In this document: in pieces, positions 20,269 through 38,517 of the stretch
Layout: every line of letters begins with the position of its first letter
How positions within the stretch are numbered: the stretch's first letter is position 1
NCBI GenBank assembly: GCA_015523565.1
Contig: WAKA01000204.1
Coordinates: 12 to 64,011, forward strand
Reading direction: 5' to 3'
From: Candidatus Heimdallarchaeota archaeon
GTDB taxonomy: Archaea > Asgardarchaeota > Heimdallarchaeia > Heimdallarchaeales > Kariarchaeaceae
Length of the DNA stretch: 64,000 nt
Program-made: the position numbers and the translations under genes
Notes under the pieces: generated by a model
The model's database searches: none
What the model was told of the DNA's origin: nothing
What the model saw: the letters and a program-made list of their open reading frames with translations, nothing else

Positions 20269-23200
20269 CTATTTACGTTTTGTACCAATAAATGAAGCAA
20301 TCCCTGGACCACCATTGGATGGTGCCACTTGCCAATCAGAAACTGAGTCCGTATCAATTGTCAAGCTTGTTCGGACAATAGTTTGACCAGTTGATGCAGT
20401 TATGTCCCAACCAGCAACATAATTCTCCCATGCAACAAAATCAATTTCAGTTCCACTTGAATCTTTGAGACTTAGTTTATCACCACTATTGCCCAATGCC
20501 AAATTAAGGTCTCCAAAGTCGGGGTTAAAGCCATATAGTGCGTTAAATCCAGTTGTTGATCGGGCAAATATCAAAAACCCACCTGCCAGGATAATTGTTC
20601 CAGATGCGATCGTATATGTTCTGGAATTGTCGGATATCGTCCAACCTGAAAGGTCAACAGCAGATGACGTAGGATTATAAAGTTCAATCCATTCCTCTTT
20701 GCTATCTGTTCCAGGAGTGTCATAAAGAACCTCAGAGATGATGACATGTGATAGTGATTGATTTAATGTTGTTGCATTGACAAGCATGGATTTTATGCCT
20801 TCATTCCCAGAGGTATCAACAGCGCTTACTTCGTAGGTATAGGTTGTAGAGGCTGTTAATCCAGTATCATTGAACACTGCCATTTGACTTGTCCCTATTA
20901 GATTTCCATTACGATAAATGTTGTAATGATCAAGGTCAGATTCCGTATTTGCATTCCAAACCAAATCTATTTGGGAAGAAGACATAGCACTTGCAACTAA
21001 TCCTTGTACTTGACTAGGGGGAGTAGTATCTGGAGGAATCCAGCTACTTAGATCAAAAATCCCGTCAACAGAATAATGATCAGAAGCACCAGTTGCAGAG
21101 GAGGTATCTCCAACTGTTGAGGAGACCATTTTTGTTGCCATGAAGTCATTTACAACCATAAAATCAATCCTGGATTCATATGGTGCAGTATAGTATGTAT
21201 ATCCAGGTTCAGTTGGATTTAATGTCCTAAACACATCCGTAAATGTATGGACTGAGGAAGAATATTGCGCATAGGTTGCGTTCGTAGGATCTATAAGCAT
21301 AGTCATGGGACCATATCCCAAATTCCCATTTGGAGAGAGGATACCAGTGTCTTGTGGGGAGAATGAATTGAGGTCTCCAGCATAGATAATGTTGGTGTCA
21401 TTGCCCAACCCATCCATATAGTTAATTATTCCTTCTTGTGCCCTTTCTCGTTTGTTTTCATTGGTTGTACCACTAGAGGCCTTCAGATGTGCACCGATTA
21501 GATGGACTACACCAGTTCCAATTGCAAGTGTCACATCAAGAAAATCATGGGAAACATCATAAGTTGACCCATCATCTAAAGTAACGAGTGGGATTGATTT
21601 TCCAGATAGGATTGACACTCTACTTAAAACTACCAGACCAGTGTACATACTTCCTTGACCAAGAGTCATTGCTTGTGAATAAGGGAGTTCAGAAGAGAAA
21701 TAGGTATTTAACTCCACCAGCAGTTTATTTATTGATGAATTTCCACGATCATCAAAATCACCTGCCTCAACAAGAAGAACAATGTCAGCATTTTCTTCCT
21801 TCAATACATCAATATATCCAGGATTTGTGCCTGATGCCTCTATATTGTACGTCATAAATTTCACGGCAGAGTAATTCAAGGGAGTAATTCCAGAATATCC
21901 AGTATTATCGACATTTACAGTTATAGAAATGGTGTTTGTATTGCCAAACATATCTGTAACACTTGCAGAAATGGTATGTGCACCATTTCCATAGCTTGTG
22001 GTATCCCAAAGGTACATGCTTGAAGCAGTCACTTCCATTCCATCTATCGATATGCCCCATTGGTTCATATAGCTTCGATCATTTGCATCCAAGGCAATTG
22101 TTGTCCATCCAGATACAGTTTGACCTTCAGTAAGACCGATAAATGAGATTTGGGGGCTTTCCAATTCTATACCCCAAGATGAAAGGTGACCAGTAGCTGG
22201 ATTTAAGACGGGTTGCGTATTTGTTCCGTCTGCATTTTGTCTTTCCGCGAATTCAGCAGAACAACCTGTTGTTTCTCCAGCCCATGTAACTGCACTAACG
22301 CAATAATAATATGTTGTTCCCACTGCCACATTGCTATCGGCATAATATCCAACAGCCCAATTCAACTCTTGAAGCAAATCCCATGTACCAACTGTTTCAT
22401 TCCATCTCCAAACCAAATATCCTTTTACAATATCAGAAGGAGTATTTCCATTCAAATGAGGTCTCCATGTAATAAAGTTTTCACCAGGATAGCCACTATA
22501 GTGACGTGTCACAATTCTTGGGACAGCCAATGGATCTGTGTCATAATTATCTGCATCTTGCTTGTATTGTTTCACTCTCGCGATATATTTTGATGCAATT
22601 GTTGGGTTATGGATAACTATGGAATTTTCATCGTTGTTATTAAATCCAGAACCGCTCCAGTTAGTGCTACCAGTCCACACTATTGTTCCGTCAAATACTC
22701 CAAACTTATGGTGATATACACCTGGATTCGCATCTACAACACCGCCACCCCATGAAATAATGTCATCTGCTTCACTATAGGCATTTCTCCATCCGCGATA
22801 ATCAAATACGCCAACTATTGTAACTCCCCTATCCCGAGCTCTGACGATTGCGTCATAAATAGTGTCTTCAGTTAAATAAAAGAGGGATAGGTAAATAGAA
22901 CTATTGCTTGAATCTATTAATTCAATTAATCGGGTCAACCCATTATCCTTGGGTGCAAAGTAAGCCTCTATCTGTATAGATCCTGCCATTGCCAATTCTG
23001 CGTTGTTATCTGTTTTTGATGACCCATAAACATTAGAGAACAACTGAGTAAATTCATCGGTATAAATACTTGCCAATTCAATACTTTTCACTTGCACAGC
23101 ATCGTTTGCATTGAACAGCGTTCCTGTTTCTGTCGGATTCCATGAGCCAGTGAAAACATATTCACCGTCCACTATGAAAAATTTGTTGTGCATTATGTTT

Positions 23201-24318
23201 GAGGTTGTAACAGAAGTTACAGAAATCCCTGCATCAACCAATTGCTGGAATTCACCAATATTATCACCATGTGCAGCAATCCGAACCTGTACCCCACGAC
23301 TATTTGCATTGAGTAGCGCATCAATCACAGGTTGCCATGTTAGGTGGTATAAAGCGGCGTCAATACTTATATTTGCACTGTTTAACAAGTTTACAATTCC
23401 TGTTGAAATATTTCCTTCAACTAAATTTTCCATTGTTGGTACGGCAGCCAAGGGATCTGTAAAATAAACCTTTATCAGGTCAGATACGGGACTATTATCA
23501 ACAGTTACATCCTTTGATGCAGTACCTACATTTCCACTGCCATCAGTAGCGTCACAGGCAATAGTATGCAATCCCTGTGTTTCAGAGGTTGTGTCCCATA
23601 AGTAACTTGACGTTTGTGATCTTTCAACACCATCAATTTTTAGGGAATAGCTTGAAATTACTCCAGAATCGTCAGTAGCAGTGCAACTTATTGTCACAGT
23701 TCCAGCCACAACGGTATTTGTTGGACTGTCAATAGTCACCAATGGTGCAGTAATGTCACCATTCCCATATCCAGACCCAGGAGTGCCCAAATCATTTCGA
23801 GCTTGCCAATCATTGCCTGAATCAGTATCCACAGGCATTTGGGATGCATCTTTCATCCTTTCAATGGAGGCATCAACTGCACTTGCAGACCAACCTGCAA
23901 CATAGTTTTCCCAAGCGACATAATCCACAGTTACACCATTATTATCAATTAATGTAAGTTCATCACCACTATTACCCAAAGCCAATGTTATTTGCCCATC
24001 AGGAAGAAATCCATATAATGATTGGAAACCAGCGTTATCCCGTGCGAGAACAAGATAACCACCAGCAGGAATTACAACAGAAGGCAATGCATTGCTTTTT
24101 GTATTGTCTGCGAGAGTCCATCCAGTTACCGAAATTGAGGTGGTAGAGGGATTAAATATCTCTACCCATTCACAAGTTGAATCACATCCTGGGGTATCAT
24201 AAAGAACTTCGCTTATAACCAAGTTTGTTCCAGATGGATTTGACTTTATTCTAAAGTTTACCACACTAAGTGAAATGGTGAGAATTATCAAAATTGACAG
24301 ATAGCTTTTGTTCTTCAA
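20269..24318 (-). CDS. Secreted multidomain nuclease/phosphodiesterase: LTD - Ig - PLD(2xHKD) - FN3 - Ig - EEP - FN3 - LTD
   Basis: 1349 aa with a signal peptide (SYLSILIILTISLSVVNF). Lamin-tail-like domains lie at aa ~32-178 and ~1190-1335 (VISEVLYDTPG.DS..EW.E..NP...GWT..DN ... AWENYVAGW). Two HKD motifs are present (HNKFFIVDG..GSWN at aa 377; HHKFGVFDG..GSTNWS..ND at aa 536). An endonuclease/exonuclease/phosphatase-like region spans aa ~815-1090 (FMTYNIE..DIVLLVEAG..GDLNS..SDHYSV). There are also FN3-like and Ig-like modules. Confidence 0.8.
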   Translation of the reverse strand: MKNKSYLSILIILTISLSVVNFRIKSNPSGTNLVISEVLYDTPGCDSTCEWVEIFNPSTTSISVTGWTLADNTKSNALPSVVIPAGGYLVLARDNAGFQSLYGFLPDGQITLALGNSGDELTLIDNNGVTVDYVAWENYVAGWSASAVDASIERMKDASQMPVDTDSGNDWQARNDLGTPGSGYGNGDITAPLVTIDSPTNTVVAGTVTISCTATDDSGVISSYSLKIDGVERSQTSSYLWDTTSETQGLHTIACDATDGSGNVGTASKDVTVDNSPVSDLIKVYFTDPLAAVPTMENLVEGNISTGIVNLLNSANISIDAALYHLTWQPVIDALLNANSRGVQVRIAAHGDNIGEFQQLVDAGISVTSVTTSNIMHNKFFIVDGEYVFTGSWNPTETGTLFNANDAVQVKSIELASIYTDEFTQLFSNVYGSSKTDNNAELAMAGSIQIEAYFAPKDNGLTRLIELIDSSNSSIYLSLFYLTEDTIYDAIVRARDRGVTIVGVFDYRGWRNAYSEADDIISWGGGVVDANPGVYHHKFGVFDGTIVWTGSTNWSGSGFNNNDENSIVIHNPTIASKYIARVKQYKQDADNYDTDPLAVPRIVTRHYSGYPGENFITWRPHLNGNTPSDIVKGYLVWRWNETVGTWDLLQELNWAVGYYADSNVAVGTTYYYCVSAVTWAGETTGCSAEFAERQNADGTNTQPVLNPATGHLSSWGIELESPQISFIGLTEGQTVSGWTTIALDANDRSYMNQWGISIDGMEVTASSMYLWDTTSYGNGAHTISASVTDMFGNTNTISITVNVDNTGYSGITPLNYSAVKFMTYNIEASGTNPGYIDVLKEENADIVLLVEAGDFDDRGNSSINKLLVELNTYFSSELPYSQAMTLGQGSMYTGLVVLSRVSILSGKSIPLVTLDDGSTYDVSHDFLDVTLAIGTGVVHLIGAHLKASSGTTNENKRERAQEGIINYMDGLGNDTNIIYAGDLNSFSPQDTGILSPNGNLGYGPMTMLIDPTNATYAQYSSSVHTFTDVFRTLNPTEPGYTYYTAPYESRIDFMVVNDFMATKMVSSTVGDTSSATGASDHYSVDGIFDLSSWIPPDTTPPSQVQGLVASAMSSSQIDLVWNANTESDLDHYNIYRNGNLIGTSQMAVFNDTGLTASTTYTYEVSAVDTSGNEGIKSMLVNATTLNQSLSHVIISEVLYDTPGTDSKEEWIELYNPTSSAVDLSGWTISDNSRTYTIASGTIILAGGFLIFARSTTGFNALYGFNPDFGDLNLALGNSGDKLSLKDSSGTEIDFVAWENYVAGWDITASTGQTIVRTSLTIDTDSVSDWQVAPSNGGPGIASFIGTKRK

Positions 24319-24648
24319 TATTTTTCAGTCTCCATTCATTTTCCGTTGATTTCTGAATTCGCAACCATCCCATAAACTATAAATATTGTGAATGCGGATT
24401 TCAATTTTCTGCAATAGTATTACTAACCAAATTAACAACTCTAAAAATGGCATTGAGAAAAGCCAGAAAAATAATATGGCAATTCAAGATTTACAAAAAA
24501 TTGTAACCAGTTGGCGCGTTTTGACTATTCATGAATAATAGTGAAATTGTTCTGTCAAGCCGTTAAAAGTCAAGAAATTTAAACGACGGAATTGGTTTTG
24601 CACAAAAATGACCTTTACTAAATGTCTTTATTTACTAAATGTCTTTAT

Positions 24649-31327: not shown

Positions 31328-31738
31328 ATGAGAAGAGAAGAACCTAGTTTTGAACCAATCAATAATGATGTTACAAGATGGAAAGGTTTCATTATTGGTA
31401 CTGGGTTATATGATGGAGGGGTATTTGTGTTTGAAATAAGAATTCCAAGGGAGTATCCCTTTAAGCCCCCTGAAGTTAAAACAAAAACCCAGATTTTTCA
31501 TCCCAATTTTTTCAAGGACAGGATTTGTGTAGGAATTTTGGGCAAGGATTGGACACCTGCAAACAATCTTGTTGATGTTGTGGAAAGCCTAAGATTTTTA
31601 TTAAGCAATCCAAATCCAGATGATCCACTCCATTCAGGAGCCGCAAAAATGATGAAAGAGAATCCAGAAGAATTCAAAAAGAAAGTTCGGGAATGGATTG
31701 ATAAATATGCAACATGGGATCAACCCGATCTTTATTAG
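31328..31738 (+). CDS. Ubiquitin-conjugating enzyme E2 (UBC fold, eukaryote-like)
   Basis: Canonical UBC core: YDGGVFVFEIRIPREYPFKPPEVKTKTQIFHPNFFKDRICVGILGKDWTPANNL..LLSNPNPDDPL, with the HPN motif, catalytic Cys and a conserved Trp. GAGG lies 8 nt upstream of the ATG at 31328. Helix-1-like sequence continues in frame upstream (see findings). Confidence 0.85.
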   Translation: MRREEPSFEPINNDVTRWKGFIIGTGLYDGGVFVFEIRIPREYPFKPPEVKTKTQIFHPNFFKDRICVGILGKDWTPANNLVDVVESLRFLLSNPNPDDPLHSGAAKMMKENPEEFKKKVREWIDKYATWDQPDLY

Positions 31739-31820
31739 TGGCTTACCAATTTAACTTAGTAACTTTTCCAACATTAAATAAGAAGATTTATGGAAACATT
31801 GATTGTTTTGAAAGATATAC

Positions 31821-32177
31821 ATGAGATCATTCCGGTTGAAACTTCGATTTTGGAGAAGAGGAAAACCTATTTTAAAAGAACCTAGAAAAAAGGTTGAGCT
31901 TAATCTTGAAAAAGCACATGAAAAATTCATAAGTCTTAGTAAAAGACTAGAGAAGATTATGAGTGAGGAATCTGAGGCAAATGCATGTGAATCGCAAATA
32001 CTATCAGAAGTTTCATTTTTAGAAGATACACAAGTTTATGAAGCAGTATTAGGACGAGTTCAAAAAGTCCCTTACCCATTGCTCAATGAAAATGATTTAG
32101 GGGTATGGCTACTTGATTACTATACATCACTAATTGCGAAAATAGAGGCTTTGCTTGAATTGGAGGAAGACATATGA
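31821..32177 (+). CDS. Hypothetical 118-aa protein between E2 and the 1036-aa ORF
   Basis: The ORF has a very basic N-terminus and a helical, acidic remainder. Its stop overlaps the ATG of the next ORF (ATGA at 32174-32177). The N-terminus is uncertain because a 31-codon ORF from the ATG at 31790 overlaps it in another frame. Confidence 0.45.
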   Translation: MRSFRLKLRFWRRGKPILKEPRKKVELNLEKAHEKFISLSKRLEKIMSEESEANACESQILSEVSFLEDTQVYEAVLGRVQKVPYPLLNENDLGVWLLDYYTSLIAKIEALLELEEDI

Positions 32178-35100
32178 CAACGCTTTTGTTATTTACATCA
32201 ATGAAGGAGGGTACAGAACATTTAGAACAGATTCATAGTTATGCAACCTTATGGAAAGGAAACAAGACAAATGACATGATTCAATTTGTGGATAGCTTTC
32301 TTGATCCCATAGAATGGGAAAGTTTTGACCCTTGGGAGGATCACCATTCTCTAATTATTCAAAATGGGATGACTATCTTTATTGGTTGGAAGGTTGAATT
32401 GCAGAGTGGAATCATAATTTTTAATTCAATTTTGTCTCAAGAAACAGATATTTCAAAATTTCTTAATTGGATTTGGTCATTTACACATACTAGTGCAAAA
32501 TATTGGGATGAATTATTGGAGGAATTAATCGATCAAGAAGAAGAAACAATTTCTAAAATCCCTATAGATATAACAAATCATCATATACAAATTGATTTTG
32601 AAGATAGAGGGACATTCATAAATAAGGTTACACAATTTTTCCAAGACAATATATTTGCAATTCTTTTCTCACCTCATGTCTTGATTGATGCTGAAAAGAT
32701 GGAATTTGAAGTTTTACAAGAGGTTTCTCTTAATGATCTTGAAATGTTTTACAATGCATTGAACTCTTCTAACCAACACATTAAGCATTTTACTGAGAAA
32801 ATTGTTTTTTGGCTCTCATTTAAGAATTATGAAGATCGAACAAAGGAGATACAAAAAATCATTAAATTGGTTGCAGATTTACTTTTGCTTGATTCCGTCC
32901 CTTCAATGGCAATTTTAGCGAAACACGCAGAAATGCTAAGTAATATTGACAAAGATCATTTTCTACTTTTGGTTCAACAATCTATTCAAGAGTTTAAACC
33001 AGACCTAAGTATTTCTGTTGAAGACCTAATAAGAATGGCAGACATAGTCTATAAAGACAGTCAAGAATTAGCGTTCATGATTGCAGGTCTTGCACTTGAA
33101 TTTATATTTAAAGACAATTCACTTGATTCTCTTGTTCTTATGGCAAAAACAATTTCTCATTGGAATACAAAGCAAATGATTGCGTTGGTTGAAACCCTTG
33201 CATCGCAATATCCCAGTCCAACTGAAGAACAAAAAGAAATACTCACAAAAGTTTATGATGAATTAAGCAAAGACATATCCGATCCAGAAGGCATTGAGTC
33301 TATTGCGAATGCATACTGTACTATAGGCAGACAAAAAGAGGCAGTTCTTCTGCGATTAAAACAATTTGACAAGATTGAGGATGAAACTGACACATTTGCC
33401 CTAGTAGAAGTGATTAAATGGGCAATTAGAATTCCAGGCATTGAAGACAAAGAACTTGCAGAAATTATAGCACCCTATTTTCTGACTGCAATGGAAACTT
33501 CCCCGGCAGGACCTTATTTTCCAGATCAAATTGGGGAAATTTACGAATATTTAGAAAAAGACCAAAAGAAAATTCTAATACTTGCAATTACAACCCAGAT
33601 TGTCAAGAATATTGATCTGGTGCCTATTTTGGAGCAATCTAGGACATTAGAAATAGTTAAGGGGTTCTTGAAAAACAAAAATGATTTTCTTGATTTAGTT
33701 GCAATTGTCAATGCAAAATTACACGAACTGTTAATGGAAGAAGGCAAAGAATCAAAAGAAATTGTAAAAGAGTTGTTTAGCTATATTGAAACAAGGAGAG
33801 GGTCTAAAGAAATTATTTTACCAATAATAGAGAAGATGTTGGTTACAACTGCAAAATTTGGGTCAGTTGAAACATATACTAGAGTTCTAGATTTTATTAA
33901 AACAATGGAGTTGGATATAAAGACAAGACACAGAATTTTTGAAATGATGGATTTGGCAGCTAAAAATGCAGTCAGTTTTCAATTAGAAGAAACAAATAAA
34001 GAGCTTGGGATTCAAATCTATTATGATATCCTTTCTTTTGCCATCATCAACGAGGATAGTGAAATACTTGCTCAAATAATGGAACATGCAGTTCAAAATG
34101 CGATTGAAATTGACAAAAGAGAAGCAATCATTGATTTTTCCAAAGGATTATTTACCTTTTCACAAATTGCAGGGATTCAATCATGGGTAGGGAAAATGAA
34201 TGAATTAATGGAAAAAATTGTTGAAAATGGAAAAGTGGAACTCTCAAAAGTTATTTTCCATGAAATTATCGAACTTGCCCCACCTCCAAATGACAAAGAG
34301 CAATTAATAGAAAAACAATTGGACATTGCCTCAAAAATACCAGACTATCTTTCCCCTGATGAAGAAACAGCGATGTGGCAAAACCTTTTGGCAATATTCA
34401 ATTTACAACAAAAATATGACGAAATCCTTGAAACAGTTGAAAGAGGATATCATGCATTTATTTCCCATAATCGTCCAATTGAAGCCTTTCATTTCTTAAT
34501 TGATGCCATTAATGTTTTAGATAGGGACGATTTTGATTCATTAGAACCAAAGCTTATTGATTCCTATCTTTCGGTTATTGATTTTTTTGAAAATGAGGCA
34601 GACAGTAAATTTGTTGCAAAAACACTTTATAATTTATTTACAGAACTTCTTAATCACGTATCAAAACATCTTTCAAGATTAAATGAAGCTATTGAAATTA
34701 CAATAAGCGAGTTAATCATCAGGTATATCAAGACAAAGGATGTCAAACAATTAGAATATGCCAATATTTTCCTTACGTTTGTTATAGAGAAGATTCCCAT
34801 TGAAGAAACATTGCCTATTCTCATCAAATCCTTTGATCAAATAATTCGGACACGAAAAAAATTTGATCCAAAATATTCTTTATTTAATGAGTTTATGGAT
34901 CGACTTAGATTTTTGAGTGCAACGAGGCAAAGAAGAGAAGGCTTGAAAGAGCTAAGGAAAATCCTTTATAAGTTTAAGAAAGCTGCTTCAAAGGACAATA
35001 AGATTAAGCAGGAGATGATTATTGGGATTTATTTAATTGGAAGTTTTTATTTTCAAATGGATTGTGATTTTGATGAGCAATGTAAAATTGAAATACAAGA

Positions 35101-35284
35101 AATAGCTGTAAATTATTTTGAGGCCATGATTGGGTTGAGCAAGAAGGAAACTGGGTTTACAGAGTTAATCCATGAGCTTTATGAAAAAGTAAGGCGGTCT
35201 CCTTCAGAAATTCGAACAATCGTTTTTCATCTTGATAGATTGATTAATTCCTACGAAGAGTATGAGCTTTTATTGGCCCGTTAG
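32174..35284 (+). CDS. Large (1036 aa) predominantly alpha-helical repeat (solenoid-like) protein with a mixed alpha/beta N-terminal ~110 aa
   Basis: A long uninterrupted ORF with coding-like composition and translational coupling to the upstream ORF. Leu/Ile/Glu/Lys-rich amphipathic segments run throughout, with no TM segment and no catalytic motif recognised. Confidence 0.7.
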   Translation: MTTLLLFTSMKEGTEHLEQIHSYATLWKGNKTNDMIQFVDSFLDPIEWESFDPWEDHHSLIIQNGMTIFIGWKVELQSGIIIFNSILSQETDISKFLNWIWSFTHTSAKYWDELLEELIDQEEETISKIPIDITNHHIQIDFEDRGTFINKVTQFFQDNIFAILFSPHVLIDAEKMEFEVLQEVSLNDLEMFYNALNSSNQHIKHFTEKIVFWLSFKNYEDRTKEIQKIIKLVADLLLLDSVPSMAILAKHAEMLSNIDKDHFLLLVQQSIQEFKPDLSISVEDLIRMADIVYKDSQELAFMIAGLALEFIFKDNSLDSLVLMAKTISHWNTKQMIALVETLASQYPSPTEEQKEILTKVYDELSKDISDPEGIESIANAYCTIGRQKEAVLLRLKQFDKIEDETDTFALVEVIKWAIRIPGIEDKELAEIIAPYFLTAMETSPAGPYFPDQIGEIYEYLEKDQKKILILAITTQIVKNIDLVPILEQSRTLEIVKGFLKNKNDFLDLVAIVNAKLHELLMEEGKESKEIVKELFSYIETRRGSKEIILPIIEKMLVTTAKFGSVETYTRVLDFIKTMELDIKTRHRIFEMMDLAAKNAVSFQLEETNKELGIQIYYDILSFAIINEDSEILAQIMEHAVQNAIEIDKREAIIDFSKGLFTFSQIAGIQSWVGKMNELMEKIVENGKVELSKVIFHEIIELAPPPNDKEQLIEKQLDIASKIPDYLSPDEETAMWQNLLAIFNLQQKYDEILETVERGYHAFISHNRPIEAFHFLIDAINVLDRDDFDSLEPKLIDSYLSVIDFFENEADSKFVAKTLYNLFTELLNHVSKHLSRLNEAIEITISELIIRYIKTKDVKQLEYANIFLTFVIEKIPIEETLPILIKSFDQIIRTRKKFDPKYSLFNEFMDRLRFLSATRQRREGLKELRKILYKFKKAASKDNKIKQEMIIGIYLIGSFYFQMDCDFDEQCKIEIQEIAVNYFEAMIGLSKKETGFTELIHELYEKVRRSPSEIRTIVFHLDRLINSYEEYELLLAR

Positions 35285-36441
35285 TTTTTTTTATTCACAA
35301 AATCAGAGATGCGTTGCAGTCCATCTTCAAGATTTTCTAACTTTGTGGCATAAGAAATCCTAAACCATCCTTCACCATGTGGACCGAATCCAATCCCTGG
35401 AGTAACAGCAACTAGTTTTTCTTTAAGTAATTCTTTTGCCCATTTAGCAGTGTCTTGTACATCATGCAATTTGAACCATCCATACATTGCCCCTTGTGGT
35501 CTTAACAAATCAAATCCCAATAGTTCCCCATCAAGTTCAATCAGTCGATCAAGTCTGGGTTTCATGATTTCCTGTATTCTCACCCTCATTTTCCCAATAT
35601 TCTTCAATGCAACCACAGCGGCATGTTGTGCAAAATTTGTGGCACAACTTGCAGTTAACTGCATGACTTTGTTTATTTCATTGGTAATTAATTCATTGGA
35701 TATTGCATATCCAACCCTAAATCCAGTCATGGAAAAGGTTTTTGAAAAGCCATTGATTGCAACACCATAGTCTTTCCAATTATTGATTTTTGTCAGAGAG
35801 AAGAAAGGCTTGTTACCAAAGACATATTCATTGTATATTTCATCACTGATCAGCAAGATTTCATTTTCTGCACAGAGATTATAGAGGCTGGCTAGTTTTT
35901 TCTCACTGATGATTTGTCCAGTTGGATTACAAGGACTGTTGACGATTAAGGCCTTTGTACGATCATCAATCAGGTTTCTAAGATCATCTTCATCAAAAGT
36001 AAAGTCTTTTCCCACTTCCAAGTATTTTGGGATGCATCCAAATGATTTAATGATAGAACCATAGGAAACCCAAGAAGGATCAAGCACGATTACATTGTCC
36101 CCTGGATTACAGACAGACCATACTGCACCAAATATGCCAAGTTTTCCCCCTGCAGTCACCACTACCTCTGTTTCAGGGGATGCATCCACTTGATAATAAT
36201 CGACAATGCTTTTTCTTAAATCAAAAATCCCTTTGCTTTCAGTATATTGAACCTTGCCATCCATTACAAAGTTTGCTGTTGCTTCAAGAACTTCGTCTAG
36301 GGGGAGAAAGTCTGGTTGACCAATAGCAAGATTAATGACATTTTTTCCCATTCGTTGAAGTTTTTTGGATTCTGCAAATACCTCTGCTGTGACCGATCCA
36401 ACAATTGAAGAGAGACTTTTTGAAAGTTTATTTGACTTCAA
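35281..36441 (-). CDS. Class I/II PLP-dependent aminotransferase (aspartate aminotransferase-like)
   Basis: NLAIGQPDF, NSPCNPTG, and the PLP-lysine block FSKTFSMTGFRVGY, at 386 aa. Confidence 0.85.
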   Translation of the reverse strand: MKSNKLSKSLSSIVGSVTAEVFAESKKLQRMGKNVINLAIGQPDFLPLDEVLEATANFVMDGKVQYTESKGIFDLRKSIVDYYQVDASPETEVVVTAGGKLGIFGAVWSVCNPGDNVIVLDPSWVSYGSIIKSFGCIPKYLEVGKDFTFDEDDLRNLIDDRTKALIVNSPCNPTGQIISEKKLASLYNLCAENEILLISDEIYNEYVFGNKPFFSLTKINNWKDYGVAINGFSKTFSMTGFRVGYAISNELITNEINKVMQLTASCATNFAQHAAVVALKNIGKMRVRIQEIMKPRLDRLIELDGELLGFDLLRPQGAMYGWFKLHDVQDTAKWAKELLKEKLVAVTPGIGFGPHGEGWFRISYATKLENLEDGLQRISDFVNKKN

Positions 36442-36522
36442 TACATTGGGCTCATTCTTTCATATTATAAACAAGTTGAATTAACCCAAAACAGATTCTG
36501 AAAAATCAATCCCATGTTAGAC

Positions 36523-36539
36523 GCGCGACAATGTCGCGC
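36523..36539. promoter_or_regulatory. GC-rich palindrome GCGCGACA-A-TGTCGCGC
   Basis: 8+1+8 perfect inverted repeat, followed at 36545-36550 by TCGCGA. It stands out in an otherwise AT-rich intergenic region between divergent genes. Confidence 0.4.
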
Positions 36540-36650
36540 CTCTATCGCGATTTTCAATCAATTTTCATCGATATGTTATCTAACTTCTTGAAGTTATTTA
36601 AGTCATGATAATATTTTTTCATCACATTTTAGGAGGTTATTTTGGAGCCA

Positions 36651-36680
36651 AACGCGAAAATTTGGCGGGAAACGCGATAG
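36651..36680. promoter_or_regulatory. Cluster of E2F-type sites: CGCGAAAA - TTTGGCGGGAAA - CGCGA
   Basis: 36661-36672 reads TTTGGCGGGAAA. Its bottom strand TTTCCCGCCAAA matches the eukaryotic E2F consensus TTTSSCGC 8/8. The flanking bottom-strand TTTTCGCG (36652-36660) is a near match. The cluster lies 136-157 nt upstream of the ATG of the E2F/DP-like ORF. Confidence 0.45.
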
Positions 36681-36807
36681 TAGTTCAATTTTCCCTTTTC
36701 ATGGGGTGATTCATATCATCTACATAATGTTTATAGGCAAGGATGAAATAAGTAAGTTCAGAAGGACAAATGATGATAGTTCATCAATTGTCGGTAGAGG
36801 ATGAATC

Positions 36808-37170
36808 ATGAAGCTCAGAGAAATTGCGGCTCAAGCTATTGAAATCATTAAGGAACGGGGAGCAGAAGGAATAAACAACGCAGAATTGGCACAATTGGTA
36901 GGAACGCCAAAAAGAAGGGTGTATGATGTCATTGCTATCCTTAAGGCGGCAAACCTAATAACAACAGAACGTGATGGATCAGGGACTAGAATCTATTGGA
37001 CTGATGAAAGCCAAGAACTGCAGCAACAATCCAATGGAACTTCATTTGTTGCATCAAAACTACGGGTGTACACAGATGGATCCATCTACAATGTTGCAAA
37101 TAGAGGATCTGAAGTGGTAATTGAATTGGATGATCAAGCAAATCTTTTGATTGAGACATTAAACGATTAA
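36808..37170 (+). CDS. E2F/DP-family-like winged-helix DNA-binding protein (120 aa)
   Basis: Residues 3-64 (LREIAAQAIEIIKERGAEGINNAELAQLVGTPKRRVYDVIAILKAANLITTERDGSGTRIYW) align by eye with the E2F DNA-binding domain (..[41 protein letters not shown]). This includes the DNA-contacting RRxYD motif (36913-36927) and the terminal Trp. GAGG lies 8 nt upstream of the ATG. Confidence 0.65.
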   Translation: MKLREIAAQAIEIIKERGAEGINNAELAQLVGTPKRRVYDVIAILKAANLITTERDGSGTRIYWTDESQELQQQSNGTSFVASKLRVYTDGSIYNVANRGSEVVIELDDQANLLIETLND

Positions 37171-37181
37171 ATTAAAATATC

Positions 37182-37742
37182 TTATGCGATAGTTCCACTT
37201 TTATCAAATGTAAAAATACCATCCATGAATGTTTTAGGTGACTTACGGCGTTTTCCCCGCAGTCGTGTCAACTCCTGAATGTTAGCACAGGTTTGTCCAA
37301 CCTTTTCTTTGTCAATGCCACTTACATAGACATTTTCGCCATCGACCTCTACCTTTACCCCAGGCAAAATTTTTGCGAAACGGGGTTTACGGCCACCGTA
37401 AAGATTCTCAACCTTTACTTCAGACCCTTGAGGAATGACTTTGATGGGGAAGTGGGAAAATACGATTTTCATGCTGTATTTGTATCCTTTAGTTACACCA
37501 TGAACCATGTTTTTGACATGGGACTCAATTGCACCTAATAGAGCTTTTTCCTTTTTTTTCGGGAAGAAAACTGAAATAACAAGCTTGCCATCTTTCTTCT
37601 CGAAAATTAGCCCACTAAAGGAAAAGTCTCTTGTCAATTCACCCAAGGGACCTTTTACAGTCACAACTGAGCCGTTCAGTTGGAGTTCAACATCTTCTGG
37701 GATTTCTACTGTTTTCTGTAATCTGCCGAACATATGAATCAC
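37182..37742 (-). CDS. rpl6: 50S ribosomal protein L6 (uL6)
   Basis: IPEDVELQLNGSVVTVKGPLGELTRDF..HVKNMVHGVTKGY..SHFPI, at 186 aa. It abuts the S8 stop. Confidence 0.95.
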   Translation of the reverse strand: MIHMFGRLQKTVEIPEDVELQLNGSVVTVKGPLGELTRDFSFSGLIFEKKDGKLVISVFFPKKKEKALLGAIESHVKNMVHGVTKGYKYSMKIVFSHFPIKVIPQGSEVKVENLYGGRKPRFAKILPGVKVEVDGENVYVSGIDKEKVGQTCANIQELTRLRGKRRKSPKTFMDGIFTFDKSGTIA

Positions 37743-38132
37743 CTAATAGACATATGCCAAAAGCCGACCACCAACATGATGTTCCAAGGCTTCTCTTTGT
37801 GTCATCACACCTTTTGGGGTAGTCAACACCAATATTCCAAAATTGACGGCAGGCAAATACCTTTTCTCAAATTCGTCAATTTCACTAACTTTTGTCGGCT
37901 GTCTTGGCTTGATTACGGCACATTTGTTAATCCGACCAAGAAGTTGGACACGAAATTGTCCTCCTTGTGCATCTTCCACTCTTTCAAATTCGCCGATATA
38001 CCCTGCTTTTTGTAGTGTTGCAAGGACGTCTTGGATAAGATTGCTTGTCGGACGTATTAGTACCTCTTTCTTACCAGCTCGATCATACGTGTCTATTTTT
38101 GATAGGGCGTCTGCCAATGGATCAAATTGCAT
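37743..38132 (-). CDS. rps8: 30S ribosomal protein S8 (uS8)
   Basis: DPLADALSKIDTYDRAGKKEVLIRPTSNLIQDVLATLQKAGYIGEFE..GILVLTTPKGVMT..EA....GGRLLAYVY. Confidence 0.95.
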   Translation of the reverse strand: MQFDPLADALSKIDTYDRAGKKEVLIRPTSNLIQDVLATLQKAGYIGEFERVEDAQGGQFRVQLLGRINKCAVIKPRQPTKVSEIDEFEKRYLPAVNFGILVLTTPKGVMTQREALEHHVGGRLLAYVY

Positions 38133-38137
38133 AATAA

Positions 38138-38308
38138 CTAACCTCCTCTGTCTCCCGTTGTCTGGAAGCCCAACTGATCGGCAACTTCCCTAAAGCATCG
38201 TCGGCAAATCAACAAGTCAGCTCTTCTGATTATGCCACGGTGTGTTCCACATCTGCGGCAAGAACGTGTACCCTTACCTACAGACCTAACCTTTTTTTCC
38301 TTTTTCAT
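38138..38308 (-). CDS. rps14: 30S ribosomal protein S14 (uS14, zinc-binding type)
   Basis: [25 protein letters not shown] (CxxC..CxxC). AAGGAGAT lies upstream of the ATG at 38308, giving 56 aa. The track ORF extends to a GTG at 38350. Confidence 0.9.
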
Positions 38309-38517
38309 GGTTTTCATCTCCTTATGGTAATTCAGGTCGGCTGGTGCCACCTTTACTGCAGGATTAATTCATTTTCCCATTCATGGTTTTAAAATCTAGA
38401 CATGAATTACACACCTAATGATGCTTCTTGAGATTCTCTTGAAAAGAACGACAAGTTTGTGAAACAGGATTGATCTTTTGCAAATAATTTTTGAACAACA
38501 GGGTCTATTCCCACATA

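Follow-up and report, generated by a model that had tools for sequence, protein, structure and literature searches.

In eukaryotes, the G1/S transition is switched at its core by transcription factors of the E2F/DP type together with Rb; the origin of these factors is a standing question. The canonical proteins (E2F1-6 and DP1-3) act as E2F-DP heterodimers, in which two RRXYD helices read CGCG halves, and possess a coiled-coil/marked-box domain as well as transactivation or pocket-protein (Rb) binding regions. The E2F7/E2F8/DEL proteins work without DP; E2F7 and E2F8 carry two tandem winged helices per chain and are repressors that bind TTCCCGCC-type sites. A passage of PMC4862756, citing Zheng 1999, describes RRXYD as a motif that is invariant in E2F/DP and recognises the GCGC core. 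The 2024 review 'The Archaeal Cell Cycle' (PMC7617429) mentions that some Asgard genomes hold E2F homologues and speculates about a deep conservation of cell-cycle transcription. The stretch of DNA analysed here, in the following called the window, comprises 64 kb of contig WAKA01000204.1 of a Candidatus Heimdallarchaeota archaeon (Kariarchaeaceae; assembly GCA_015523565.1, contig positions 12 to 64,011) and contains a gene for an E2F/DP-like protein of 120 amino acids (aa). We propose, with moderate confidence, that this gene encodes an Asgard E2F/DP-type factor, which would act as a homodimer and regulate its own expression through upstream CGCG/GGCGG sites.

An initial annotation, made from the letters of the window alone, had considered an E2F fold with its cognate site in an archaeon a striking case and knew of no characterised archaeal regulator of this type. 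Our literature search likewise found no paper characterising an archaeal E2F-like protein, its architecture, its binding sites or its regulation. The homology and the conserved sites stand, while Asgard E2F homologues as such had already been noted (PMC7617429), almost certainly from the same family as the window protein. The minimal winged-helix plus beta-domain form, the layout of winged helix, coiled coil and beta domain found in longer relatives, and the conserved E2F-type upstream sites appear to be new. The gene and its product consist of the following parts, whose positions, like those of all upstream motifs named in the initial annotation, agree with the sequence:

36808..37170, plus strand: gene for the 120-aa E2F/DP-like protein (open reading frame (ORF), Pfam E2F_TDP match, orthologues).
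36814..36999, plus strand: winged-helix DNA-binding domain, aa 3-64, three helices and a beta-hairpin wing up to the invariant W64 (AlphaFold2 (AF2) predicted local distance difference test (pLDDT) score 83-91; hhalign to E2F2).
36913..36927, plus strand: RRVYD, R36-D40 (codons 36-40) at the start of the recognition helix, equivalent to the RRXYD motif of E2F/DP (sequence).
37060..37158, plus strand: C-terminal four-strand beta domain, aa 85-117 (conserved T-G-I-NV-NRG-V-IE), a putative dimerisation module (AF2, hhalign).

The profile evidence supports this ORF as a genuine E2F/DP-type winged helix, its domain being homologous to that of eukaryotic E2F/DP. E2F_TDP (PF02319) was the sole Pfam family over threshold (32.3 bits versus a cut-off of 25.7, residues 3-55 matching profile positions 5-57 of 65), and the window protein, judged by its sequence, has the defining features of this domain family. 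The other Pfam winged-helix families remained below threshold, with HVO_A0114 at 20.4 bits, the TFIIIC B-block at 19.7 bits, TrmB at 15.9 bits (cut-off 25.6) and HTH_metalloreg (ArsR) at 17.4 bits (cut-off 55); MarR was unlisted at E<=10, so that among the profiles named by the initial annotation only E2F_TDP was retained. An NCBIfam search of the window protein gave nothing close to threshold. The 15 close homologues (116-157 aa) all have an E2F_TDP-type domain, and PKRRVYDV and W64 are unchanged throughout the 14 aligned orthologues that make up our family profile. Searched against 177,635 PDB sequences, this profile matched best to E2F8 (4yo2, E 6.8e-4), followed by E2F4 and DP2 (1cf7). A filter-free search of 1.84 billion representatives returned just 61 proteins at E<=1e-3, namely Asgard proteins, eukaryotic E2F/DEL-like proteins (including bird E2F2) and three spurious immunoglobulin (Ig)-repeat proteins; the profile matches to E2F/DP are reciprocal. 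The hhalign comparison with vertebrate E2F2 (94.6%, E 7e-8) extended over 68 columns and the entire winged helix, pairing KRRVYD with KRRIYD and W64 with the trailing Trp. Together with the Pfam score, it backs the by-eye alignment of about 60 residues, including RRxYD and the trailing Trp, with which the annotation had started.

The retention of RRxYD among orthologues, on which that proposal leaned, extends to divergent members found by hidden Markov model (HMM) only, where it is nearly universal (one exception, RRIHD); loci from our genome scan had been seeded with this motif and were left out of this evidence. Named members belong to Heimdall (Kariarchaeaceae), Thor, Odin, Baldr and 'Ranarchaeia' metagenome-assembled genomes (MAGs), where all are annotated as hypothetical, and the archaeal relatives found came from Asgard archaea only. 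Repressors of the MarR, ArsR/SmtB and TrmB types share with the window protein its size, general fold, sites at the own promoter and likely dimeric state, and differ from it in their profiles, as given above, and in dimerising through helices, the putative dimerisation element of the window protein being its C-terminal beta domain. When the full model was compared with the PDB by Foldseek, ArsR and MarR came out on top, followed by other generic winged helices (RbkR, ESCRT-II, TFIIIC; all at E of at least 3e-3), and E2F was absent from the top 50, the winged-helix fold being too common to discriminate families.

The two-domain architecture is clear from the AF2 model, in which a winged helix (aa 3-64) is predicted with confidence, followed by a disordered linker of variable sequence (aa 65-84) and by the beta domain (aa 85-117). 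Modelled alone, the C-terminal domain (pLDDT 86.6) is an all-beta meander of four strands with no helices and no Pfam match, and its last strand runs to aa 117, three residues before the chain stops at aa 120. An Lrp/AsnC-type assignment was rejected, since there is no RAM/ACT domain of the beta-alpha-beta-beta-alpha-beta type. Foldseek with this domain alone found nothing significant; the matches to E2F1-DP1 (2aze_A, E 4.2, TM score 0.41) and E2F5-DP1 (5tuv_A), at E values of 4-6, may be a hint and are no evidence. Neither Pfam nor Foldseek detected ligand-binding relatives of the beta domain. It most likely serves to make the window protein a homodimer, which would distinguish it from the canonical E2F-DP heterodimer. 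The 64-kb window holds no second copy of the family that could be a DP-like partner. One Heimdall-group MAG (binchicken_co85_74) encodes two paralogues (L006 and L007, on CAZRLL010000002.1 and CAZRLL010000047.1) that are 53% and 52% identical to the window protein, which would allow an E2F-DP-style heterodimer in that organism.

The Thor, Odin, Baldr and 'Ranarchaeia' members are longer (about 175-185 aa; L010-L042, e.g., L015:6001-6549; P0021, P0027, P0035-P0047). In these a coiled coil of about 45 residues stands between the winged helix and a beta domain like that of the short form, at the place of the disordered linker of the window protein. Short and long forms align by hhalign at 99.9% over both domains, and six Thor/Odin-type relatives scored 34-36 bits with E2F_TDP. 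Compared with E2F2, the long form is collinear through DNA-binding domain and coiled coil (97.5%, E 7e-12), a similarity of low specificity as far as the coiled coil is concerned. Matches to Pfam E2F_CC-MB or DP were absent from these long relatives even at E<=10, and no marked-box similarity was detectable.

Compared with the described eukaryotic systems, the window protein shares with E2F/DP (PF02319; 1CF7) the winged helix, KRRxYD, the wing Trp and candidate sites in which a CGCG/GGCGG core is preceded by TTT; it differs in being archaeal, in its 120 aa and in the lack of an N-terminal arm. Identity with the canonical E2F/DP proteins was rejected, as the window protein has no coiled-coil/marked-box domain (no E2F_CC-MB or DP match) and no transactivation or pocket-binding region; a partner was not found in the window either. 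The E2F7/E2F8/DEL group includes the best-scoring solved structure for our family profile (4YO2), and TTTCCCGCC is the bottom strand at a window site; an E2F7/8-type identity was rejected because of the single E2F_TDP domain.

The upstream sites come as two groups in the 366-bp intergenic region before the gene, which also contains the predicted promoter:

36522..36540, no strand assigned: distal palindrome CGCGCGACAATGTCGCGC(C), with CGCGCG/CGCGC cores in its arms (inverted repeat I3).
36544..36551, no strand assigned: ATCGCGAT site with core TCGCGA (36545-36550), 10 bp from the right arm of the palindrome (sequence; conserved in L001 and L003).
36609..36621, no strand assigned: T-rich block TAATATTTTTTCA (invariant island in a four-species alignment).
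36641..36657, plus strand: first copy of a tandem repeat, 17 nt, TTTGGAGCCAAACGCGA (direct repeat D3, 20-bp spacing).
36661..36677, plus strand: second copy of the tandem repeat, TTTGGCGGGAAACGCGA, holding the exact E2F-consensus match and CGCGA.
36723..36736, plus strand: predicted core promoter CATAATGTTTATAG (invariant island; resemblance to the TATA consensus).
36765..36792, plus strand: leader palindrome or hairpin GACAAATGATGA-N4-TCATCAATTGTC (inverted repeat I5).

The core of the distal palindrome, GCGCGACA-A-TGTCGCGC, lies at 36523-36539, and its left arm extends to CGCGCG, giving CGCGCGACAATGTCGCGC (36522-36539). In the proximal group, CGCGAAAA (36653-36660) is followed by TTTGGCGGGAAA (36661-36672) and by CGCGA (36673-36677). 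A repeat search identified this E2F-like site as the second copy of a 17-nt direct repeat, a feature absent from the initial annotation. The bottom strand of the second copy, TTTCCCGC, matches the E2F consensus exactly; the first copy contains TTTGGAGC, which matches TTTSSCGC at 7 of 8 positions, and ACGCGAAA, whose bottom strand is TTTCGCGT.

The claimed 8/8 match to TTTSSCGC on the bottom strand and its GC-rich neighbours are present, and their clustering goes beyond chance. The genome is AT-rich (36.8% G+C) and depleted in CpG (observed/expected 0.51), and 6 of the 28 CGCG words of the window fall within 36522-36676 (Poisson P ~1e-10 per 160 bp). Among the intergenic DNA of the window (7.2 kb in 41 regions), the upstream region of the E2F-like gene holds 6 of the 11 CGCG and 3 of the 4 TTTSSCG, and every other region has at most one of each. 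The exact TTTSSCGC, with 4 occurrences in 64 kb, is by itself only mildly unusual.

By its likeness to the archaeal TATA consensus, CATAATGTTTATAG is likely the core promoter, with the predicted TATA box TTTATA at 36730-36735, 73-78 nt before the ATG. The block TAATATTTTTTCA is possibly a second promoter element or a leftward TATA box with TFB recognition element (BRE); its minus strand resembles BRE/TATA (TGAAAAAATATTA) and would drive leftward transcription across the palindrome towards an aminotransferase gene. The leader palindrome sits between the predicted transcription start and a Shine-Dalgarno-like GAGG, has a folding z of about -2.4 in the window, L001 and L003, and recurs in L001-L003, where the substitutions leave its pairing intact. 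Its possible roles are those of an RNA hairpin or of an additional operator, and a C-box-like AUGAUGA forms part of it.

For the comparison across species we collected 42 loci from a genome scan and 7 from exact-protein look-ups (L numbers), the main site set being the 7 loci with at least 60% protein identity (window, L001, L002, L003, L043, L045, L047). Between the window, L001, L002 and L003, whose proteins are 72-76% identical, the intergenic DNA has drifted apart except for invariant islands, which are the palindrome, TCGCGA, the T-rich block, TTGGAGCCAA, TTTGGCGG, CATAATGTTTATAG and the leader palindrome; TTGGAGCCAA, part of the first repeat copy, is shared by L001 and L002 and, almost unchanged, by L003. 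The palindrome occurs at -285 to -313 in five species (the former four and L047), with GCGCGACA likewise in five species and nowhere in 113 kb of background, and TCGCGA is found upstream in 6 of the 7 species. Orthologues of 60-64% identity have upstream DNA that is unalignable and contains the same words. L047 contains TTTCGCGACATTGTCGCGCG at -291, TTTTCGCGAA, TTTGGCGGTATAA and a GGCGG that precedes the TATA box by 6 nt. In L045/L046/L004, four CGCG words follow one another with a period of 9 bp, and TTTTTCGCGAAA is present together with TTTTGGCGG 4 nt before TTTAATAT; L049 shares this TATA-adjacent site, and L043 has CGCGCTAATCGCGAAA upstream.

An unbiased k-mer search over the 7 loci ranked CGCGAAA/TTTCGCG as the top 7-mer (10 occurrences in 6 of the 7 species, none in 113 kb), followed by GCGCGACA and CCGCCAAA, which corresponds to TTTGGCGG. 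TTTSSCG is 34-fold enriched upstream of the 7 orthologues (20 in 3.15 kb versus 21 in 112.7 kb). Of the 7 copies of TTTGGCGG in 443 kb, 5 stand upstream of the E2F-like gene, each in the orientation of this gene; L045, L047 and L049 contain more copies. The sole copy in L001 outside that upstream region (L001:10500-10507) adjoins a TATA-like TTTAAAT about 34 nt before the gene of ATP-synthase subunit E and has no counterpart at that place in the window. L045/L004/L049, L047 and L009 each have a GGCGG ending 0-6 nt ahead of the TATA box, and L043 has the variant GCGGC at 6 nt. The site P values treat species as independent, though window, L001 and L002 can be aligned with one another; separate support comes from the three lineages that cannot be aligned and from L009. 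Conservation of cognate-like sites, as judged from these upstream sequences, is thereby demonstrated for this Heimdall clade. The initial annotation's idea that orthologues keep such sites holds at 60-76% protein identity and fails for Thor and for most Heimdall orthologues of about 50% identity.

The Thor loci (L010-L042) carry instead, at about -60 to -250, two copies of ATTTTTCG(A/G)AA / TCGAAAAATCG in 25 of 31 loci, in place of CGCG sites. Their promoter region is well conserved and has a TATA-like ACAAA..TTAAATA and nested inverted repeats in the leader, including CCGCCGG, and CGCG is unenriched. A metagenome scan for the palindrome GCGCGACANTGTCGCGC gave, among the matches listed, GC-rich bacterial contigs (median GC 64%) and no Asgard locus.

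A class I/II aminotransferase gene (Aminotran_1_2) stands directly upstream of the E2F-like gene in all 7 loci at >=60% identity, and in the window, L001 and L002 it is divergent from the shared intergenic region, with the palindrome about 80 nt from its start. The E2F-like protein might thus be a local metabolic regulator of this neighbour, with the beta domain as a small-ligand sensor and the E2F similarity reflecting shared winged-helix ancestry only. We regard this as quite improbable. In L003, L043, L045 and L047 the aminotransferase is co-directional and the site clusters lie behind its stop codon, where they cannot act on its promoter, and the aminotransferase's own upstream regions in these loci have no site cluster. 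The clusters keep their distance to the E2F-like ATG despite the inversion of the aminotransferase, which, with its cluster-free promoters, assigns them to the E2F-like gene. The linkage is missing from the Thor loci and from the group of about 50% identity, and the beta domain, as described above, has no detectable ligand-binding relatives and no RAM/ACT fold. L043 has one TTTCCCGC before the aminotransferase.

The co-directional loci raise a further possibility, since their distal cluster starts 15-55 nt past the aminotransferase stop codon. Here the GC-rich elements would work at the RNA or structural level, as terminator hairpin of the upstream gene or as part of an unannotated small RNA; the palindrome could form an 8-bp hairpin, and there is a conserved T-run at 36609-36621. 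This seems very improbable to us. Rfam gave no match on 36300-37300, and a scan for bacterial-type promoters and terminators found no terminator, its sigma-70 matches being at chance level and irrelevant to an archaeon. The cluster is retained in the window, L001 and L002, in which the aminotransferase has the inverted orientation and no gene terminates at this place. L045 has, instead of the palindrome, the four CGCG at 9-bp period, which are unable to form a hairpin; what is conserved are therefore the CGCG words and not a structure.

Given sites that belong to the E2F-like gene, autoregulation by its homodimeric product might proceed as follows. A small transcription factor, built from the RRVYD winged helix, a variable linker and the four-strand beta domain, would bind as a dimer to the clustered sites with CGCG and GGCGG cores that precede its gene, in the way in which the two RRXYD helices of E2F-DP read CGCG halves. 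The distal group would comprise the CGCGCG-N7-CGCGC palindrome and TCGCGA, about 260-290 nt before the ATG, and the proximal group the 20-bp-spaced repeats TTTGGAGCCAAACGCGA and TTTGGCGGGAAACGCGA, about 130-167 nt before it. Binding would feed back on the own promoter, with its TATA box at -78. In archaea a factor bound at the BRE position normally blocks TBP/TFB. Negative autoregulation was most likely the ancestral mode, because the TATA-adjacent GGCGG of distant lineages occupies just this position; in the window, where the sites lie at least 58 bp upstream of the TATA box, regulation may be of either sign.

The same sites might, however, be bound by another transcription factor, the E2F-like gene being its target and the resemblance to the E2F consensus coincidental. 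Protein and sites are linked by adjacency and by the known specificity of the eukaryotic relatives, nothing else; Thor orthologues combine an identical recognition helix with a different conserved upstream motif; and no second motif-bearing promoter was found in the window. This explanation is, in our judgement, unlikely. TTTCGCG and TTTGGCGG, leading k-mers of the unbiased search, agree at 7 of 8 positions with TTTSSCGC, the site read by the only family to which the protein belongs, and the sites move with the E2F-like gene through rearrangement of both flanks. Among small winged-helix factors of archaea and bacteria, self-regulation is more common than any other arrangement.

Several points weigh against an autoregulating E2F-type homodimer. 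The binding of the protein to the sites and its dimerisation through the beta domain are proposals, and the structural search returns generic winged helices only. The alignment with E2F2 reveals that the window protein lacks the N-terminal arm found ahead of the E2F winged helix. In the E2F4-DP2 structure this arm reportedly contacts the T-tract, and the conserved TTT of the archaeal sites is therefore unexplained. Window, L001 and L002 are not independent observations. Upstream CGCG is absent from four of the five Heimdall orthologues whose identity is about 50%, the exception being L009 with TTTGGCGG, and in Thor orthologues, which share the PKRRVYDV helix, TTTSSCG is not enriched upstream (1.2-fold). 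No regulon was seen, as the motif is absent from all other promoters of the 64-kb window; a scan of the window and of the flanking DNA at orthologous loci gave isolated matches and no consistent second target.

On a more tentative level, which we hold to be possible and still doubtful, the RRxYD code (TTT-S-S-CG / CGCG) and the order of DNA-binding domain, coiled coil and beta module would already have existed in Asgard archaea, this family being the direct prokaryotic ancestor of E2F/DP. The window form would then be a self-regulating homodimer on E2F-type sites, and may control replication or division genes elsewhere. The locus lends itself to testing, with a minimal E2F-type protein of 120 aa and, upstream of its gene, E2F-like sites that several species share. 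If the protein binds these sites, a key cell-cycle factor of eukaryotes recognises DNA in a way that is older than the eukaryotes themselves; defined probes and a defined motif then become available for a target search in complete Asgard genomes, from which one could learn whether the archaeal ancestor already had transcription of the cell-cycle type. Without such binding, the family is another archaeal winged-helix regulator that was later recruited by eukaryotes.

The downstream neighbour of the E2F-like gene is variable, with ribosomal L6/S8/S14 in the window and dCTP deaminase/dUTPase, ribosomal S9/L13 or peptidase M17 elsewhere. In one lineage the dCTP deaminase/dUTPase gene, of nucleotide metabolism, is convergent and directly downstream (L045:3368-3814, L046:3368-3799, L049:534-980). 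The ribosomal block of the window (L6, S8, S14; 37182-38350) stands isolated between two aminotransferase genes; it corresponds to a minor part of the large cluster in which ribosomal protein genes usually occur, and its order is shared with L001 and L002. No Orc1/Cdc6 match was found among the 29 window ORFs scanned against Pfam, and nothing was seen for an origin or a centromere-like element. On the other side of the intergenic region, a UQ_con (ubiquitin-conjugating E2) gene is linked, near the E2F-like gene, to a 118-aa ORF and to a 1036-aa protein free of Pfam matches, in the window (31328-35284) as well as in L001 (531-4443) and L003 (8728-12042); the presence of this E2 gene agrees with an Asgard origin of the DNA. 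The minus strand of the window at 20269-24318 encodes a 1349-aa protein with PLD-like, endonuclease/exonuclease/phosphatase, Ig-like, fn3 and two lamin-tail domains, and about 195 nt upstream of its gene lies the intergenic TTGGCGCG (24511-24518), which matches the E2F consensus at 7 of 8 positions.

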